A stretch of 64,000 bases of DNA from Candidatus Eiseniibacteriota bacterium (GCA_963707915.1 OY970178.1:1888001-1952000); one strand, 5' to 3'; shown: positions 19,118 to 29,984, counted from the stretch's first letter. Made by a program: numbers and translations. Notes: generated by a model not told the origin, from the letters alone.

Positions 19118-19194
19118 TGGCAGGCCTGGAGGGATTCGAACCCCCGACACCCGGTTTTGGAGACCGGTGCTCTAGCCAGCTGAGCTACAGGCCT
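19118..19194 (-). tRNA. tRNA-Trp(CCA)
   Basis: AGGCCTG acceptor stem, anticodon loop CTCCAAA, GTTCGAATC T-loop, encoded CCA end. Confidence 0.97.
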
Positions 19195-19260
19195 AAGTCG
19201 TATCCGGGCCGACTCGCGGCGGCCCCCATCGCCATCGCACGACCCACAGCCCGACGCGCG

Positions 19261-19410
19261 CTAGCGCGTCTCCTTGTGGGCGGTGTGCTTCCGGCAGGCC
19301 GGGCAGTACTTCTTCTGCTCGACCCGGTCCGGATGCAGGCGCTTGTTCTTCTTGGTGATGTAGTTGCGATGCTTGCAGTCGTTGCAGGCGAGGATGACCT
19401 GGTCTCTCAT
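19261..19410 (-). CDS. rpmG: 50S ribosomal protein L33 (Zn-binding, two CxxC)
   Basis: Manual translation [49 protein letters not shown]; too short for the ORF track. Confidence 0.97.
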
Positions 19411-19446
19411 GTCGTGTCCCGTCTCCGCTGCCGGACGATCGGCCCG

Positions 19447-20647
<1,201 letters not shown>

Positions 20648-21645: not shown

Positions 21646-21674
21646 AAGATAGTCAGCGCGCCCGGGACTGTCAA
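21646..21674 (-). promoter_or_regulatory. sigma70 promoter of the tRNA Thr-Tyr-Gly cluster
   Basis: TTGACA-N17-TATCTT about 33 nt upstream of tRNA-Thr(TGT). Confidence 0.8.
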
Positions 21675-21723
21675 GACGCGGATGCGCGCCGCTCGCCAGG
21701 GCCCCGAAGCCCGGCCACATGCG

Positions 21724-21772
21724 AAAAGGCAGCCAAGTCGAGCGAACCTGAGTCCACTCTGTGGCTGCCTCT
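21724..21772 (-). terminator. Intrinsic terminator ending the putative sigma54 transcript
   Basis: AGGCAGCCA...TGGCTGCCT outer stem with inner GAGTGGAC-TCAG-GTTCGCTC stem (two G-U pairs, valid only on minus), then TTTT. Confidence 0.65.
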
Positions 21773-22034
21773 TCCCGAGAGAACAGGGGGTGACCGGGAA
21801 GAACCCCGTTGTCCTCCCGGCTTCGTTGACCGGGCGTATTTGGTTTTTTTGCAGAATGAACAGCGAACCACTACTCAACTAGACACCGACCAAGTCGAGG
21901 CTTCTCTCTCACCCCTTTCTCGTTCGGCCCCATCGTCGAGGCCAACCTGCCAACCAGGGTACGAGCCCTGCCCTGCAGCCATTACGCCGCAGGATGTTCC
22001 GGGTGATCGACTACGCTCGCTCTCCGTATCCGTG
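21724..22034 (-). ncRNA. Putative ~310-nt sigma54-dependent small RNA
   Basis: Bounded by a -24/-12 promoter and a terminator; several stems; no ORF with RBS and host-like codon usage. Confidence 0.5.
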
Positions 22035-22044
22035 CATCGTGCAT

Positions 22045-22060
22045 TGCAGGGCGCGTGCCA
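22045..22060 (-). promoter_or_regulatory. sigma54 (-24/-12) promoter
   Basis: TGGCACGCGCCCTGCA versus consensus TGGCACG-N4-TTGCW (GG-N10-GC, one mismatch). Confidence 0.8.
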
Positions 22061-22178: not shown

Positions 22179-22271
22179 GTGTTACGTCCAGAGGTAACAC
22201 GTTCCGCGACGCATTGTCCGCCAACTCCCATGGGCGCAACCACTTCGCGACTGTTACCCGCGAGGTGACAC
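22179..22271. promoter_or_regulatory. Two palindromic upstream activator sequences (candidate bEBP binding sites)
   Basis: GTGTTAC-N8-GTAACAC (22179-22200) and TGTTAC-N7-GTGACA (22252-22270); both contain GAGGTRACAC. Confidence 0.65.
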
Positions 22272-22301: not shown

Positions 22302-22332
22302 ATCGGGGCGGGGGATGAATCCCCGCCCCGAT
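22302..22332 (-). terminator. Hairpin terminator after the TPR-bEBP gene
   Basis: ATCGGGGCGGGG-N7-CCCCGCCCCGAT 12-bp inverted repeat 17 nt after the stop. Confidence 0.65.
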
Positions 22333-22349: not shown

Positions 22350-24774
22350 TCAGGGCAGCGTGATGCTCAGGCGCTTGAGTCTCGCGTAGAGCGTCTTGCG
22401 GCTGACGCCCAGCAATTCGGCCACGCGACTCTTGTTCCGGCCCGCCCGCTGGTAGGCGGCCATGATGGCGGCCCGCTCCTGCTCCGCGGTGTCGTGGGCC
22501 GGGCGGACTGGCGAGGACTGCAGCAGGAAGGGCAACAGCGCGCCCGCGTCCAGGCGCTCGCTGCCGACGTGGAGCGCGCCCACCCGCTTCATCACGTTCT
22601 CCAGCTCGCGGACGTTGCCCGGCCAGGGGTGCGAGAGCAGCACCGCCTCGGCGTCGGCGCTCAGTCGCGGGCCCTGGAAACCGCCGTAGAAGGCCAGGAA
22701 GTGCCGGGCCAGCGGGACGATGTCGTCCGAGCCGCTCGCGCAGCGGCGGCACGCGGATCTCGATCTCGTTCAGGCGGAACAACAGGTCGCGCCGGAACAA
22801 CCGCTCCCCCTCGCTGCCCCGCAGTTCCCGGTTGGTGGAGGCGATGATGCGCACCTCCGCCCGACGCACCCGGGTCTCGCCCAGCCGCATGTACTCGCCG
22901 CTCTCGAGGAAGCGCAGCAGGGTGACCTGCACGTCCTGCGGCAGGTCGCCGACCTCGTCCAGGCACAGCGTGCCGCCGTCGGCCGCCTCGACCAGCCCGG
23001 CCGCGTCGGCGTGCGCGCCCGTGAAGGCGCCCTTGCGGTGGCCGAAGAGCTGCGAGAGGGCCAGTTCGGCGCGCAACGCACCGCAGTTGACCGCCAGGAA
23101 CGGCCGGTCCGCCCGCGCGGAGAGCACGTGGATGGTCCGCGCGATGAGCTCCTTGCCGGTGCCGGTCTCTCCCGTGATCAGCACCGACAGGTCGGTGCCC
23201 GCCGCGCGCCGCGCCATGGCCTCGACCCGCTGCATGGCGTGGGAATAGGCGACCAGCGTGGGCGCCCGGTGCTTGCGACCCGGCGGGACCACGCGGGCGG
23301 CGGTCGCCGCGGCCCCGGCGGCGCCCAGCAGGCGCTGCAGCTCGAGATCGGTGCGTTCGAGCCACTCCTGCGCCGAGAGCTCGGCGAACAGCGCGCCGGC
23401 ACGGTAGAGGTGGTGCCGACCCTCGCGCGGTTCGCTCACCACCCGGCCCAGCTCGAACAGCGTGCGGGCCAGCTCGTAGCGCTCGCGCAGCCCGGTCAGC
23501 ATGCGCACCGTGTCGGTCCAGCCGCGCAGGGCGTCCTCGTGCCGGCCCCGGGCCCAGGCGATCGCCGCTGCCGCGCGGTGCCCCAGCGCCAGCTCGAGCC
23601 GGTCCTCGATGCGTTCCGCCAGCCGCAGGGCCCGATCGCAGGCGAGCTGCGCCTCGTCCAGCCGGCCCAGGCGGGTCAGCGCATCGGCCCGGCGCCGTTC
23701 CAGCTCGACCACCAGGTCGCCCTCGGGGGCCAGGACGGCGGCCAGCAGGCTGGCCTGGTCGTAGCGCGCCAGCGCCTCGGCGTGCCGGTCGCGGTCGGCG
23801 TCCAGCTCGCCGAGGAACTCGATCGCCAGGACCTCCTCGCGGGGCGCGCCGTGCTCCCGGGCGCGCTTCAGGGCGTCGGCGAACAGGGCCTCGGCGTCGG
23901 CGAAGCGGCGCTGCAGGCGGGCGATGTTGCCGCGCGCGATCCGCACCGTCGCCAGGCGCAGCGGGTTGGCGAGCTGCTCGTAGACCTGCTCGGCCTGGAC
24001 GTAGCACTCCTCGGCCTGCTCCCATTCCCCGCTCTTCTGGTGGACGATGCCCAGGTTGAGGAGGGCATCGGCCGTCGAGGGGAACCGGCCCAGGCGCCGG
24101 AACACGTCGAGCGCGGTGCGCAGGCAGGCCACCGCCGCGTCCCACTCGCACAGGTTCTTGAGGATCAGGCCCAGGTCGCTGCGGGCGCGGGCGGAGCGCC
24201 AGTCGTCGCCGAGGCGCCGGTACAGCCCGAGCGCCTGCTCGTAGAAGTCCCGGGCCTCGTGGAGGTCCCCCTCGCGGTACGCGATCCGGCCCAGGTGGTG
24301 GAGCGCGCGCGCCGCGAGGTCGTGATCGCCCGAGGCGTCCGCCAGGGCGAGGGCCGCGGAGGAGTCCACGCGGGCGTCGTCGAGACGGCCCAGCCGGAAG
24401 AGCGCCTCGGCGCACTGCAGGTGAATCCCGGCCCGGCCCGGGACGGCGTCGACGCCCCCCTCGGTCGCCAGCAGCTCGCGACAGTGCGCCAGCGCGCCCA
24501 GCGTGTCGCCCTGGGCCAGCCTGCACGCCACCGCCCGGCTCTCGAGCGCCACCCGGCGGGCCGGCGAGAGCGTCCGCGCTGCAGGCAGCGCGAGCAGGCG
24601 CTCGATCGTCTCCAGCGCGGGCACGGAACTGTCCGCCTGCAGGTACAGGTCGGCCAGCATCTCGAGGTCGGCCACCGCGTCCTGCGGGGTGCCCCCGACG
24701 GGCAACCCCGATCCGCAGGTCAGCGCAAGCTTCCCTTCCAGCTCGGCAATCCGATTCCGGTCATCGATCGGCAC
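22350..24774 (-). CDS. TPR-repeat sigma54-dependent enhancer-binding protein (TPR-AAA+-Fis HTH); apparent frameshift at ~22729
   Basis: ~500 aa of TPR-like repeats; GETGTGKE, GAFTGA, DEVGD, FRRDLLFRLN; second frame supplies WPGNVRELEN and NKSRVAELLGVSRKTLY. Confidence 0.92.
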
Positions 24775-24813
24775 GCCGGTACTCCGGTCAATTCGGCCCT
24801 AGCCAGCTGGGTG

Positions 24814-25170
24814 TCAGAAACGCAGGAAGATGGCCCTGAGGCCCAGCAGGAACAGTTGTACAGGGTTCGTCGCGACGCTGATGGGAGCCATCTCCTCACC
24901 CACGAGGACAGCCCCTCTCTGCGGCACCACCTGGCTCGTGCTGTTGCGAACCACGGTCAGCTTGCCGGCCTTGCCGTCTCCGGGCCCCATCGGCACATCC
25001 GGGTCACCGAGTGACGGTAGGGGATCGCCCCCGTCCGGCGAAATGACGAAGCTGCCGGAGCCGCTGTCCGCGAAGGACGTCGAGGGCGCGGCGAAGGAGA
25101 GGAAGCAGGTGGTGAGGAGACACAGCGTCAGGACGAACGCCCACGAGCGATTCATCGCGAATCGGAACAT
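24814..25170 (-). CDS. Small secreted protein/propeptide (118 aa)
   Basis: AGGAAAGG RBS; signal peptide ending near SFA|D; G/D/P-rich GGDP..GDPD core; hydrophobic C-terminal helix; 39 nt upstream of the bEBP. Confidence 0.8.
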
Positions 25171-25323
25171 GAGAACCTTTCCTGTGTCATGAAACGATGA
25201 ACCAAAGCGCCCGGCCTGCTATGACTTCTCCCGCCAGAGGGGTCGCCGTCACGGAGTGAGGTCGGGATACGGGGTGACCCCTCTCTCCGCAGACGTCGTT
25301 TGCGGGCAGCCCGGTACGGAAGG

Positions 25324-25353
25324 ATTGTAGTCCCGTTGCTCCCGGCGCGGCAA
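25324..25353 (-). promoter_or_regulatory. sigma70 promoter of the propeptide-bEBP operon
   Basis: TTGCCG-N18-TACAAT. Confidence 0.55.
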
Positions 25354-25480
25354 GGGGATGTTGCGCCCGAACGTCGGGCCCGGGGCGCCCCGGGGAGCGC
25401 CCACCGCCCGGCTCCCGGCCGGCGCCGGCACGGCGCGGCCCCGGGTAGGGAGATCCCCGGGGCCGCCGTGCGGGCCGCGA

Positions 25481-26902
25481 CTAGCGCCGCTTGAGCCTGG
25501 GCGGCTGTCCCTTCACGTCTTCGAGCACCACGCCGAATTCGTCCAGGAGCCGCTGCCGCAGGGCGTCCGCCCGGGCCCAGTCGCGGTCCTTGCGGGCCTG
25601 CTCGCGCTCCCCGGCCAGCGCCAGGACCTCGGTTGGCCAGGACTCCCCGGCGGGCTTTCTCCAGAAGAGGCCGAGCACGCCGCCCAGGCCGAGCAGGACC
25701 CGGCCCGCCGCGGGGCCCTCGGGCGAGCCCTCGTCCAGCGCCCGGTTCACCTCGCGCGACAGGTCGAACAGGTGCCCGATGGCCTTGGCGCTGTTGAAGT
25801 CGTCCTCCATCGCCTCGTGGAACGAGCCGCTCGCACTCCGCCACCGCCCGGCCCAGGTCCCCGGTCGGGGCCGTCCCGGCGGGCAGGTCCCAGGCCCGCG
25901 CCCGGGCGAGCACGCCGATCAGGCGCTGGTGGGCCACCGCGGCCTCGGCCAGGCGCTCCTCGTTGAACTCGAGCGGGCTGCGGTAGTGGGTCGAGAGCAG
26001 GTAGTAGCGCACCACCTCGGGGTCCGTGCGGCCGGCGATCTCGTCCACGTAGAACAGGCTGCCGGTCCCGGTGCTCTTCGAGATCTTGTCGCCGCCGGTC
26101 GTCACCATGCCGTTCTCGGTCCAGAAGTTCGCGAACGGCTTGCCGGTGGCGGCCTCGCTCTGGGCGATCTCGTTCTCGTGGTGCGGGAAGATCAGGTCCT
26201 GCCCGCCGCCGTGGATGTCGAGGGTCTCGCCCAGGTACTTCATGCTCATGGCCGAGCACTCGATGTGCCAGCCGGGCCGGCCGGGCCCCCAGGGGCTCTC
26301 CCAGGCCGGCTCGCCCGGCTTGGCGCCCTTCCACAGCGCGAAGTCGAGCGGGTCGCGCTTCTCCTCGCCCACGTTGGCCTTGTCGCCGGCCTTCTCGCGC
26401 TCGCTCGCGCGCACCTCGTCCAGGCTGCGGCCCGAGAGCTTCCCGTAGTCGGCCTTCGAGCGCACGTCGAAGTAGACGTCGCCGCCCGCCGCGTAGGCGT
26501 GGCCCTTCTCGATCAGGCGGCGCGATCAGTTCGAACATCTCGGCGATGTGCTGGGTGGCGCGCGGGTAGTGCGTGGCCGGCAGGATGTTGTGCAGCGCCG
26601 CGCCCTCGAGGTAGGCGGCGATGTTGCGCTCGCTGACCGAGGTGTAGTCCACGCCCTCGCTGCGTCGCCCGGTCGATGATCTTGTCGTCCACGTCGGTGA
26701 AGTTGTAGACGTAGGTCACGTCGTAACCGAGGTGCAGCAGGTAGCGGCGCATCAGGTCGCCCGAGAGCGAGGCGCGGATGTGCCCGACGTGGGGCTTGTC
26801 CTGCACCGTCATGCCGCACACGTACATGCCCACGCGGCCGGGGTGGACGGGGACGAACTCGCGCTTCTCGCGCGTCAGCGTGTCGTAGATGCGCAGCGTC
26901 AC
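25481..26902 (-). CDS. cysS: Cysteine--tRNA ligase (about 3 apparent frameshifts)
   Basis: [63 protein letters not shown] spread over different frames. Confidence 0.95.
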
Positions 26903-27813
26903 GGGTTCTCCAGGGGGATGGCGGTGGCAGCCGCCGGGCCGGGCCCGGCGGACAGCGGTCGGATGGCGATCTCGCGGTTCGTCCCGGTGCGGATGTCCCC
27001 GGCGACCAGCGCCTCGTGGGCGCGCAGCCGCAGCTCGCGCGCCACCTGGAAGGCGTCGGCCCCGGGCCGGGACCGTACCACCATGCGCAATTGGACCTCG
27101 GCGCCGGCGAGCGCCTCGACGCCCCACAACTCGGCGGGCTCGATCAGCCGCTCGCGCCAGCACCGGCTCGGCATTCAGTCCGTCCACGACCCCGCGGCAC
27201 AGCTCGAGCGCCCGCCCGAGGTCCTCGTTGGCCCCGACCGGCACGTCCACGGTGAGGCGGTTCCAGTCGCGGCTGCGGTTGGTGACCGTCTTGAACTCGC
27301 CGTTCGGCACGTAGTGGACGAAGCCGTTGAAGCCGCGCAGCCGCGTGCAGCGCAGGCGTCACCTCCTCGACCAGCGCGGGCTGGCCCGCGACCTCGACCA
27401 GCTCGCCCACGGCGAACTGGTTCTCGACCAGGATGAAGTAGCCGGCGATCAGGTCGCGCACCAGCGTCTGCGCGCCGAAGCCCAGCGCGACGCCGAGGAT
27501 GCCGGCCCCCGCCAGCAGGGGCTTCACGTCCCAGCCGAAGATCGCCAGCGCGTGGATGAACGCCCCCGCCCAGATGACCGCGGTCGCCAGGCTGCGCAGG
27601 GTCTGGGCGACGCGTCTGCGCGCGCTGCGCGCTGCCCGGCCGGTCCTGGCCCGCGCGGACCATCCAGTGCCGCAGGCGGCCCACCAGCAGCCGCGCGACC
27701 TGCTGCAGCAGGAACGCACCGCCCAGGGTCAGCGCCAGGCGGATCCCCATCTCGGCGAGCTTCTCGGACTCCGGGATGAGGTGCAGGACCAGCAGGTACG
27801 CGGGCAGGTTCAT
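26899..27813 (-). CDS. Small-conductance mechanosensitive channel family protein (frameshifted)
   Basis: LAGAGILGVALGFGAQTLVRDLIAG..ILVENQFAVGE; VPNGEF..VTNRSRDW. Confidence 0.9.
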
Positions 27814-27876: not shown

Positions 27877-28962
27877 TCAGACCAGGCCCTCGATCGTCCT
27901 GCGGTCGAGTCGCTTCACCAGCGCCACCAGCAGCTTCACCGCCTGCTCGAAGTCCTTCCGGCTGATGATGCTGACGTGGCTGTGGATGTAGCGCGCGGGA
28001 ACACCCATCGAGAGCGTGGGCACGCCCTGGCCGTTGAGGTGGATGCGGCCCGCGTCGGTGCCGCCGCGCTCCACCGCCTCGAACTGCAGCGGGATCCGCA
28101 GCTTCTTCGCGGTGTCCACCACCAGGTCGAGCAGCCCGCGGCTGGGGATCGCGCTGGCGTCGTAGACCACGATCAGCGGTCCGCCGCCCAGCTTCTCCTC
28201 GCCGTCGGCGCCCGGCGTGTCGTGCGCGATGCCCACGTCGAGCGCCAGGCCCACGTCGGGCTGGATCTTGAACGCCGAGGTCTGCGCGCCCCGCATGCCG
28301 ACCTCCTCCTGCACCGTGCCCACCGCGTAGAGCGTGTTCGGGTGCGCCACGCCGCGCAGCCGCAGCGCGACCTCGGCCGCGATGGCGCAGCCGATGCGGT
28401 TGTCCCACGCCTTGGCGAGCAGCAGGTCGGGGTTCGCCATCACCGTGAAGGGCGACTCGGGCACGATCGCGTCACCCGGGCGGATGTCGAGCTTCTTGCG
28501 CACGTCCCAGCCGGACGAGGCGCCGACGTCGATGTACAGGTCCTTGATCTCGAGGACCTTGCGGCGGTCCTCGTCGCGGATCTCGTGCGGGGGCTTCGAG
28601 CCCACCACGCCCGTCACGTCGCCCTTGCGGGTCTTGATGACGAGCCGCTGCGCCAGCACCACGTGGCCCCACCAGCCGCCGAGCGGCAGGAACTTGACGA
28701 AGCCCTCCTTGGTGACCGACTTCACCATGAAGCCGACCTCGTCGAGGTGGCCCGCCAGCATGACGCGCGGCGGCTCCGGCGCGCGCGCGCTGCGCGTGCG
28801 GGGCATGCCGCGCTTCTCGCAGATGAAGCTGCCGAGCCGGTCGTGGCTGATGGTCCCGACGCCCTTGAGGTGGCGCTCCAGCACGCGGACCACCGGGCTC
28901 TCGGCGCCGGGCGTGCCGTGCGCCTCGACCAGGTCCTTCAGGAATTGCAGCGTCTTGTCCAT
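27877..28962 (-). CDS. M42 family metallo-aminopeptidase
   Basis: [37 protein letters not shown]. Confidence 0.93.
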
Positions 28963-28979
28963 GGGGCCTCCGGGAGGGT

Positions 28980-29984
28980 TCAGCTGCGCGGTGCGGTCAC
29001 GGACGCCAGCTCGAGCGTGCGCGCGACGACGTCTTCGTAGGACATGCCCCGCCGCCCGCGCCGCCATCGGCACGAGGCTGGTCGGGGTCATCCCCGGGAT
29101 GGTGTTCACTTCGAGGCACGAGGGCTCGCCCCGCGGGGGCAGGCGGAAGTCCACCCGCGACACGCCGGTGCAGCCCAGCGACCGCGCGGCGCGCAGTCCC
29201 AGCGTCGCGGACGCTCGCGGCCAGCGGCTCCGGCAGGTCCGCCGGGCAGAAGTAGTCGGTGCGGCCCTTCGTGTACTTGTTCTCGTAGTCGTAGAAGCCT
29301 TGCTTGGGGCAGATCTCGACGATCGGCAGGGCCTCGTCGCCCAGCACGGTGACCGTCAGCTCGCGGCCCGGGATGTACTCCTCGATCAGGACGACCTCGC
29401 CGTGGAGCGCCGCCTCCATGAAGGCCGGCTCGAGGTCGGCCTCGCGCCGCACGATGGTGAGCGCGACGCTCGAGCCCTCCGCGCTGGGCTTGACCACGAC
29501 CGGCAGCCCGCCGCAGGCCTCGAGGTCCCGGGCGTCGGGCCGCTCGCCGGCGCGCCGCGCGGTCCACCGCGGGGTCGGCACGCCGTCGTGCACGAACACG
29601 CGCTTCGACATCACCTTGTCCATGGCGAGCGCGCTCGCGAGCACGCCGGAGCCGGTGTAGCGCTTGCCCGCCAGCTCGAGCAGGGCCTGGATGCGGCCGT
29701 CCTCGCCGAAGGTGCCGTGCAGCGCGATGTACACGACGTCCGCCTCGCGCACCGCCGGGACCTCCACCACGCCGACCTGCGCCCGCAACGGCAGGCGCGC
29801 CACTTCGGCCGCGCGTCCGCGCCGCGGCCTCCTCGCCGCCGGCGGGGAGCAGCGCGCCGTCGGCGGCGTCCACCGAGGTCACCTCGTGGCCCAGGGTGCG
29901 CAGCGCCCGCGCCACGCCCTGGCCGGTCTTGAGCGAGATCTCGCGTTCCGCGGAACGCCCTCCCATCAGCACCGCCACCTTCAT
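28980..29984 (-). CDS. ddl: D-alanine--D-alanine ligase (frameshifted)
   Basis: [54 protein letters not shown]. Confidence 0.94.

Follow-up and report, generated by a model that had tools for sequence, protein, structure and literature searches.

A putative sigma-54-dependent structured RNA gene behind a TPR-type activator gene in two families of Candidatus Eisenbacteria

The window, by which we mean the whole stretch of 64,000 nucleotides analysed here, very probably carries on its minus strand a real sigma-54-dependent gene for a non-coding RNA (ncRNA). On sequence evidence this real-looking RNA gene is uncatalogued and order-restricted, being found in two Candidatus Eisenbacteria families of one order (soil/sediment, uncultured). 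An initial annotation of the window had proposed a novel ncRNA gene with its own sigma-54 promoter, a proposal which the relatives strongly support, with covarying base pairs and no match in Rfam. Comparison of the related loci shows a promoter, enhancer-like dyads, a terminator, a conserved fold, a lack of coding signal and linkage to an activator gene. The best explanation in our judgement combines the identity of the locus as a structured ncRNA gene with action of its product by base pairing, and we regard these two taken jointly as having about an even chance of being right.

Position, promoter and ends of the RNA gene

The features of the locus, from the activator gene to the end of the RNA, are as follows.

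22350..24774, minus strand: activator gene with TPR, sigma-54 AAA+, lid and HTH_8 domains (Pfam) and a 1-base frameshift near 22726
22252..22270, minus strand: distal enhancer-like dyad TGTCACCTCGCGGGTAACA, ~210 nt upstream of the promoter
22180..22199, minus strand: proximal enhancer-like dyad TGTTACCTCTGGACGTAACA, ~139 nt upstream of the promoter
22045..22060, minus strand: sigma-54-type -24/-12 promoter TGGCACGCGCCCTGCA, read from the sequence
21723..22034, minus strand: predicted RNA of ~312 nt, the short form of its family, without the P3-P4 subdomain
21723..21774, minus strand: intrinsic-terminator hairpin and U-run, with a 12-bp foot that is 98.1% paired

The promoter reads TGGCAC-GCGCC-CTGCA at 22060-22045 on the minus strand, with GG at 22059-58 and GC at 22047-46, and its geometry places the predicted RNA start near 22034, expected within 1-3 nt of CGGAUACGG on the minus strand. 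The spacing of 10 nt between GG and GC, the presence of rpoN and bEBP genes in the genome and the dyads upstream are what is expected of a sigma-54 promoter. At the other end, the terminator hairpin at 21774-21723 (minus strand) has the arms GAAGAGGCAGCC...GGCUGCCUUUUC and is GC-rich, followed by UUUUC ending at 21723. A simple terminator scan of the region did not list this hairpin, because the scan needs at least 5 T in 8 bases and only 4 are present. Both ends of the RNA were inferred from the promoter geometry and the terminator, and together with the length they match the earlier coordinates, hairpin and U-run being found where the initial annotation had placed them.

The G + C content is 0.575-0.645 along the RNA against 0.71-0.785 in the upstream gene. 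Inside the RNA region, minus-strand ORFs are of 35 aa or less, and two longer ones (66 and 91 aa) extend over the terminator as far as the tRNA promoter or the tRNA. The predicted fold of the minus strand beats that of shuffled sequences (z = -4.31, equalled by 0 of 100 shuffles); that of the plus strand is ordinary (z = -1.15, equalled by 13 of 100).

A tRNA-Thr/Tyr/Gly/Thr-tuf cluster lies directly downstream of the RNA on the same strand. The tRNAs had been credited with a sigma70 promoter of their own, and a sigma-70-like TTGACA-17-TATCTT site, matched at 10 of 12 positions, is indeed located at 21674-21646. The RNA was found upstream of the tRNA cluster in all nine relatives scanned with Rfam, at a distance which varies among relatives from about 80 to about 800 nt and is 700-800 nt in some.

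In one metatranscriptome, contigs that come from relatives reach into the conserved core, a weak hint that the RNA is transcribed, with the reservation that RNA libraries can carry DNA. The sequencing runs each contained at most 0.11 of the sampled words, and the contigs of the four runs compared, all from relatives (at least 80% alike), are uninformative on start, end, strand or frameshift.

Members and distribution of the RNA family

BLAST of the region gave matches in 42 of 61 related genomes, with 32/36 in family f1, 9/10 in family f3 and 0/14 in eleven other families. The best-kept part of the family is a core at 21851-21763 of the window, in which a 20-mer, AATACGCCCGGTCAACGAAG, showed no variation among the first 29 relatives obtained by BLAST. 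When one genome each of 185,579 species was searched, the exact 20-mer was found in 72 records, of which 49 are named Candidatus Eisenbacteria or Eiseniibacteriota, 19 'bacterium' or 'uncultured bacterium', and 4 bear other names. All 102 loci have a TGGCAC-N5-xTGCx motif, placed 183-441 nt before the 20-mer, and a terminator-end pattern was found in 93 of the 102, some of the other nine being cut by contig ends. The promoter had been described as pointing into a lower-GC region without a credible CDS, which agrees with the lack of a conserved reading frame.

The 102 loci reduce to 69 distinct sequences, on average 438 nt long. The usual length of the RNA in the family is 430-460 nt, with a range of 310-550 nt, and the copy in the window is among the short ones. 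Relatives L002 and L003, of the same genus, have ~120 nt extra between promoter and core, a subdomain with two hairpins. This subdomain is also missing from at least six other sequences (L025, L030, L037, L046, L049 and L096) and is therefore dispensable.

A covariance model of the 3′ core, R1, was searched against 151 genomes sampled across the phylum. The window copy scored 139.5 bits, and matches were found in 57 of 65 genomes of the two families of one order (f1 51/59, f3 6/6), with 0/85 in the draft genomes of 15 other families of the phylum. The gene is single-copy in each matched genome apart from G019, which has two. Eight f1 genomes gave no R1 match. Five of these have the activator gene cut by a contig end, as read directly in one case (the contig stops 127 nt past a dyad) and judged from match coordinates in four; the other three (G022, G100 and G154; 89-92% complete) have paralog-level activator matches only.

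A check against Rfam had been suggested in the initial annotation. Searching the window and the loci of nine relatives against Rfam 15 at gathering scores returned tRNAs alone, with none in the RNA region, where even at E ≤ 10 only chance-level matches were obtained. A divergent housekeeping RNA was rejected, since the genome has its canonical RNase P, tmRNA, 6S and SRP RNAs at other places, each scoring above the cut-off of its model (254.9, 173.6, 71.2 and 60.5 bits, respectively). None of the papers listed by the literature searches reports such an RNA in the Candidatus Eisenbacteria phylum.

Predicted fold and conserved elements

The elements of the predicted RNA are listed from the 5′ end.

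22024..22031, minus strand: 5′ strand of helix P1, GGAUACGG, pairing with CUCGUACC (96% of cells in 50 sequences)
21971..21995, minus strand: hairpin P6, UCCUGCGGC-GUAAUGG-GCUGCAGGG, just 5′ of the P1 3′ strand (minimum-free-energy fold)
21957..21968, minus strand: conserved block GGGCUCGUACCC, containing the P1 3′ strand, nearly invariant in the alignments
21906..21919, minus strand: purine-rich SD-like block GAAAGGGGUGAGAG, present family-wide as GGGGUGAG or GGGGGGAUGG
21821..21850, minus strand: A-tract and invariant 20-mer AAUACGCCCGGUCAACGAAG, predicted to be single-stranded, the candidate seed (invariant in 29 BLAST relatives)
21775..21820, minus strand: long hairpin of 16 pairs, 12 of which vary on both sides, with a conserved 13-nt loop UUCUUCCCGGUCA that holds a second CCCGGUCA

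The pairing tests used MAFFT alignments that were not fitted to structure. For the 3′ part, the alignment (A2) contained 69 sequences and the helices were hand-set, namely the 16-pair hairpin and the 12-pair terminator foot. Standard pairs filled 93.8% of the cells, compared with 46-63% when the 3′ partners were slid by 1-3 columns; 19 of the 28 pairs vary on both sides, in 109 cells, and none of 500 shuffles reached any of the five measures. In the long hairpin the helix cells were 89.5% and 95.6% paired, and in the terminator foot 7 pairs vary on both sides. G-U pairs are frequent in both (in 41 of 68 rows for pair 125:191 and in 38 of 68 for pair 74:118), which fits transcription of the minus strand; G-U pairs in the terminator had already been taken in the initial annotation as tying it to this strand.

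RNAalifold on plain MAFFT alignments gave only fragments for the 5′ domain, so the helices there were set by hand and then tested. In the alignment of the 5′ part (A3; 50 long-form sequences, five hand-set helices), 79.7% of the cells were paired against 34-48% when slid, and both-sided changes occurred in 147 cells against 57-94, with the caveat that 113 of 500 shuffles had as many pairs varying on both sides. The helix equivalent to P6 was 85.9% paired in the relatives, and all 5 of its pairs vary on both sides. In P1, the 5′ segment, with the consensus CGGAUACGGGG, pairs with the downstream CUCGUACC; no covariation is seen because both strands are nearly invariant, and covariation in the alignments thus neither supports nor contradicts this helix. 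For the middle region, the linker from the G-rich block to the A-tract, RNAalifold returned no consensus fold. Taken together, the compensatory changes in the aligned relatives support a folded RNA with the 3′ hairpin, the terminator and the 5′ hairpins.

Three sequence motifs had been pointed out in the initial annotation. The first of the tandem ACGGA motifs at the 5′ end is conserved; the second is specific to the window, the family consensus being CGGAUACGGGG. The purine-rich SD-like tract at 21919-21906 is conserved as well and, just as had been described, is followed by no start codon at a suitable distance. The A-rich tract at 21850-21844 is present and kept in the relatives, and its proposed Hfq/Crc-like role is considered below.

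Two further structures involving the 20-mer were considered. A small hairpin, CCCGG-UCAACGAAG-CCGGG, could hide the 20-mer but was rejected, since changes in its 3′ arm go uncompensated and this arm pairs within the long hairpin. An antisense promoter within the 20-mer was likewise rejected, as a -35-like TTGACC is present with no -10 box by eye.

The upstream activator gene and its putative enhancer sites

The activator gene lies upstream of the RNA in the same orientation in all 30 loci with 1.5-kb flanks, and ortholog-level activators (39-88% identity) occur in the same two families as the RNA. The frameshift near 22726 is an extra C relative to L002-L004. Several further genes in the window are broken or incomplete as well: cysS is spread over two ORFs, ddl over two pieces, and a 484-codon tuf ORF covers the GTP domain only. 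Since these other essential genes are split too, the frameshift is probably an assembly error and not the mark of a pseudogene. A strong hairpin at 22302-22332 follows the stop codon of the activator, which makes it unlikely that the RNA is a 3′-UTR product.

A dyad, TGTNAC-N6-10-GTNACA, is found at -200 to -213 in most relatives, and the proximal dyad of relatives at -126 to -141. By a strict pattern, at least one dyad is present in 51 of 69 unique loci at nearly constant distances. In the 3.6-Mb genome, which has one rpoN gene and 17 strong bEBP matches, the strict pattern TGTYACC-N4-9-GGTRACA has a single match, the distal dyad, and a looser pattern has 3, of which 2 are at the RNA locus. 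The third (G000:1326260) has no good sigma-54 site near it, where 3 two-mismatch matches were found and 2.8 were expected. Since the dyads keep fixed distances and have hardly any counterpart elsewhere in the genome, the RNA seems to serve as a dedicated output of the TPR activator.

From these features we infer that the RNA is transcribed and acts in trans through a seed, with feedback on its activator. Sigma-54 polymerase would transcribe the RNA gene when the upstream TPR-type bEBP binds the dyads ~140 and ~210 nt before the promoter, and the intrinsic terminator would end the transcript before the tRNA-Thr/Tyr/Gly/Thr-tuf cluster. The RNA would be the dedicated, perhaps the only, direct output of the activator. 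It would most likely pair in trans by means of the exposed C-rich element (AAUACGCCCGGUCAACGAAG), a second CCCGGUCA being held in the hairpin loop, and one probable target would be the ribosome-binding region of the activator's own mRNA, resulting in negative feedback.

Predicted pairing with the activator mRNA

The invariant, C-rich and predicted single-stranded element CCGGUCAACGA is complementary to the ribosome-binding region of the activator mRNA, where the facing site is as follows.

24782..24791, minus strand: leader of the activator mRNA, UUGACCGGAG, overlapping the SD and complementary to CCGGUCAA of the RNA

The leader segment that faces CCGGUCAA reads UUGACCGG, and a second UGACCGG is located at 24757-24763, within codons 4-6 of the activator. 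The activator leader is short, and its only conserved part is (UCGU)UGACCGGAG; this segment overlaps the SD GGAG, eight or nine bases ahead of the GUG start, and is complementary to CCGGUCA(ACGA) within the invariant element. Counted by eye from the sequences, the leader has UGACCGGAG in 18 of the 33 f1 genomes and GACCGG in 23 of them, and the motif is absent from both f3 leaders (2/2); complementarity is extended to 10-12 nt in 3 of the 33 f1 genomes. The duplex between the element and the start region had a mean energy of -18.9 kcal/mol versus -14.3 for shuffled sequences, with p ≤ 0.05 in 17/33 genomes and always at the SD, and the copy in the hairpin loop reached p ≤ 0.05 in 4/33; these figures, like the motif counts, overstate the support because shuffling kept only mononucleotide composition and the genomes share ancestry.

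The site in the activator leader is far less conserved than the element in the RNA. A small hairpin that would sequester the SD can also form from CCGG in the leader, and GTTGACC is frequent between genes because it is the typical -35 box of this group. The complementarity at the activator SD suggests a feedback of the LuxO-Qrr kind, which we put forward tentatively as a possibility with less than an even chance. For action by base pairing as such, whatever its targets, the case is about evenly balanced.

Other targets were sought across the genome. Longer complements of the seed occurred in chance numbers (six 12-mers and one 13-mer). Three candidate targets have the motif at the ribosome-binding site, and no Pfam family was found in any of them. 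One candidate ORF, L173, has no homolog in 30 family genomes. Another, L174, was rejected, as its motif is the -35 box of a promoter whose TAnnAT -10 box is kept in relatives.

A more elaborate form of the feedback would be a closed loop, in which a small exported protein encoded upstream is sensed by the TPR domain and the activator then produces the RNA as its only output. The RNA in turn would stop translation of the activator mRNA, and of other mRNA, through the C-rich seed. Such a circuit would resemble quorum sensing in a phylum lacking Hfq, with a sister family using a different RNA. The chain as a whole appears rather unlikely to hold in all its links.

Alternative functions of the RNA

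Instead of pairing with mRNA, the RNA may be a sponge or scaffold for protein, whose two invariant CCCGGUCA sites, invariant loops and G-rich block would bind an RNA-binding protein or complex, and which would act by titration or assembly in the manner of CrcZ on Hfq/Crc. A 20-mer without variation in 72 records exceeds the usual need of a seed, the same 8-mer occurs twice, the RNA is large with several domains, and the search described above gave no convincing set of mRNA targets. The gene order is also that of cbrB-crcZ, as described in passages of PMC5113210. Against this, two sites are few for a sponge, no candidate protein emerged, and the known partners fail, with Hfq found in 0 of 41 family genomes and neither GGA nor ARN enriched. 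We consider protein binding unlikely as the main function, though a reading to be taken seriously.

Two specific partners had been raised in the initial annotation. Its check for csrA and hfq showed that CsrA is present in the genome, and Hfq was not found with the Pfam model in any of the 41 family genomes. The CsrA-like reading did not hold, and a sponge of the CsrB/RsmZ type was rejected: GGA occurs 10.55 times per RNA versus 9.93 in shuffled sequences and A.GGA 1.36 versus 2.07 times, and the 5′ motif lies within a helix. Binding of Hfq/Crc was rejected on the lack of Hfq (0/41) and on the ARN runs, which are not enriched (mean longest run 2.78 versus 2.23, with 9 of 69 sequences notable); the A-rich tract itself thus stands and its Hfq/Crc-like reading does not.

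A new catalytic or RNP RNA, in which the SD-like GGGGUGA and an anti-SD-like loop of the long form, GCACCUCCAU, engage the ribosome or translation apparatus, is an improbable reading. A length of ~450 nt, several conserved unpaired blocks and strong conservation would suit such an RNA, as would its constant place upstream of the tRNA cluster in 9/9 relatives scanned. However, the anti-SD-like loop is situated in the subdomain that is absent from the window and at least six sequences, 700-800 nt separate the RNA from the tRNAs in some relatives, and control by sigma-54 and a bEBP points to a conditional regulator and away from a housekeeping role. The genome has its canonical RNase P, tmRNA, 6S and SRP RNAs at other loci.

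The position on the same strand directly upstream of the tRNA-Thr/Tyr/Gly/Thr-tuf cluster would also be that of a cis-acting leader, readthrough of whose terminator would raise tRNA and EF-Tu expression under the activator's signal. This we regard as very improbable, because the tRNA cluster has a sigma-70-like promoter of its own, its distance varies from ~80 to ~800 nt, the terminator foot is a covarying 12-bp helix in nearly all members, and 300-450 nt of conserved fold would be unneeded.

Coding potential was assessed on the same homologs. Column entropy by codon phase was 0.40, 0.50 and 0.48, that is, with no three-base periodicity; an open frame with an in-frame start was found in 17, 13 and 21 of 69 sequences for the three frames; and the length from the 20-mer to the RNA end fell into all classes modulo 3 (29, 11 and 29 sequences). 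A coding region was rejected on the strength of these three results. The initial annotation had proposed weighing covariation against coding signal in homologs, and the outcome was compensatory changes on the one side and no codon periodicity or shared frame on the other. An mRNA for a small protein, for example in a frame through the core (...KKTKYARSTKPG...) that forms in the window a 66-codon GTG ORF at 21671-21871, is hardly credible: all three frames are open through the core in most members (55, 60 and 40 of 69) and an SD-like block lies upstream, but codon periodicity is absent, each frame has an in-frame start in no more than 13-21 of 69 sequences, indel lengths do not keep to multiples of three, the variable bases are compensatory for RNA and radical for protein, the 20-mer is invariant at every codon position, and the ORF would cross the terminator into the next promoter.

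Comparison with known activator-RNA systems

A sensor-activator wired straight to one regulatory RNA is known in a small number of well-studied proteobacteria (CbrB-CrcZ of Pseudomonas and Azotobacter, and LuxO-Qrr of Vibrio), and the same wiring also occurs in myxobacteria. CrcZ is ~400 nt long, and the Qrr RNAs are ~100 nt, Hfq-dependent and multi-copy. Pxr of Myxococcus, of ~100 nt, is encoded directly behind the bEBP gene nla19/pxrR and has a sigma-54-type promoter. Our locus resembles that of Pxr in having an RNA gene with a sigma-54-type promoter directly behind the gene of an enhancer-binding protein; it differs in that Pxr is a short RNA, and no Rfam family, Pxr included, scores on the window or its relatives. 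The RNA is similar to CrcZ in size.

According to passages of PMC5113210, crcZ has an RpoN promoter just downstream of cbrB, is activated by CbrB and has its own terminator, and in the parts of PMC5113210 and PMC4063720 that concern its action CrcZ works through several AAnAAnAA motifs bound by Hfq/Crc. The likeness to this system, as far as it is described there, is that the RNA gene lies directly behind the bEBP gene in the same orientation, with its own RpoN -24/-12 promoter and terminator. By contrast, our RNA has one A-tract only and no Rfam match, Hfq was found in 0/41 genomes, and the place of a response regulator is taken by a TPR protein. In Vibrio, LuxO is itself a target of the Qrr RNAs that it activates, which repress its translation (PMC3730234). 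In both that system and ours a sigma-54 activator drives, or is predicted to drive, a regulatory RNA, and the complementarity to the activator SD suggests the same feedback logic here; unlike Qrr, the present RNA is 310-550 nt long, single-copy (two in G019) and unrelated in sequence, occurs in an Hfq-less group, and its feedback is predicted.

The regulatory design has precedents; the RNA itself belongs to a new family and is of unusual size. The same logic would operate here in an uncultured phylum in which no Hfq gene was found, with a TPR activator in place of a response regulator. The RNA is about four times the size of a typical small RNA, with a dispensable 5′ subdomain and a 20-nt element unchanged in 72 records. 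It provides a new family for RNA catalogues and a marker for one Candidatus Eisenbacteria order, and the full set of parts (enhancer sites, promoter, RNA and candidate target) could be rebuilt in a laboratory host for an organism that has not been grown.

In a sister family of the same phylum, f11, an element in a comparable position was observed. It does not adjoin tRNAs and has no detectable similarity to the window RNA, with no match in Rfam and a best R1 score of 9.2 bits (E = 0.24). A homologous TPR activator of ~830 aa (33-37% identical) is followed there by a CGGCAC-N5-ATGCT promoter, and ~200-300 nt behind the activator are conserved in 39 of 41 genomes, making this a candidate RNA by position. 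If the f11 element is an RNA, the activator-RNA module would be older than either RNA family.

Surroundings of the activator gene

Two features flank the activator gene, which encodes a protein with TPR, sigma-54 AAA+, lid and HTH_8 parts and lies upstream of the predicted sigma-54-driven structured ncRNA (hereafter the RNA):

24814-25170, minus strand: ORF of 118 codons, directly before the activator gene
22302-22332, minus strand: GC-rich hairpin of 13 bp, AUCGGGGCGGGGA-UUCA-UCCCCCGCCCCGAU followed by UUCCUGUUUC, read by eye

The start of the ORF resembles a signal peptide, and the product, which belongs to no Pfam family, carries a GDPDVP motif and has a hydrophobic end. The 3′ end of the ORF is conserved among relatives in f1, the family with most carriers of the RNA. 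Because its stop codon and the activator start are only about 25-45 nt apart, the two genes are probably co-transcribed. The hairpin, located directly 3′ of the activator stop codon, is likely a terminator separating the activator transcript from the RNA gene; it was not among the sites listed by a simple terminator scan.

Several genes of the window have a frameshifted appearance in this assembly:

22726: one extra C in the activator gene
25152-27310: cysS, split into two ORFs
27877-29984: ddl, in two pieces, one an in-frame fusion with an M42 peptidase
19193-20647: tuf ORF of 484 codons, matching the GTP domain only

Single-base indels in the window should not be trusted.

The RNA locus in relatives and the sister family

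At eight loci of relatives (L009, L012, L015, L020, L021, L025, L028 and L030), a TGCTAnnnT-like -10 box was found just after the RNA terminator, with an ATG about 7-10 nt later; judged from this arrangement, the RNA and the tRNA cluster are separated there by what looks like an inserted leaderless gene. One genome, G019, has two copies of the RNA, on contigs C3 and C6; the activator gene copy next to the second one is truncated and covers just residues 2-302 of the query.

In the sister family f11 of the same phylum, another conserved stretch is found (alignment A4):

L124:2280-2580 (genome G088), minus strand: conserved, putatively non-coding stretch

It is kept in 39 of 41 genomes and located downstream of a homologous TPR activator, behind a sigma-54-type promoter, with repeated GTGACAT/ATGTC sites upstream. 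No Rfam family matches the stretch. It is a different element from the RNA of the window, to which it shows no similarity.

Intergenic dyad and promoter words

Besides the two enhancer-type dyads (TGTYACC-N-GGTRACA) at the RNA locus, a looser form of this pattern occurs only once more in the genome of the window (G000). This other dyad is intergenic, and its neighbourhood has no good sigma-54 promoter:

L119:1761-1778 (G000:C1:1326260-1326277): dyad TGTCACGGGGAGGTGACA

Upstream regions were also compared, in L177-L200, for a further gene:

G000:C1:1188851-1189330: conserved gene of about 140 aa

Promoters of the group seem to consist of the -35 box CGTTGACC and, 17 nt later, the -10 box TAnnAT, which occurs in these loci as TACGAT, TAGGAT and TAGCAT. 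This pattern helps in interpreting intergenic motifs of these genomes.
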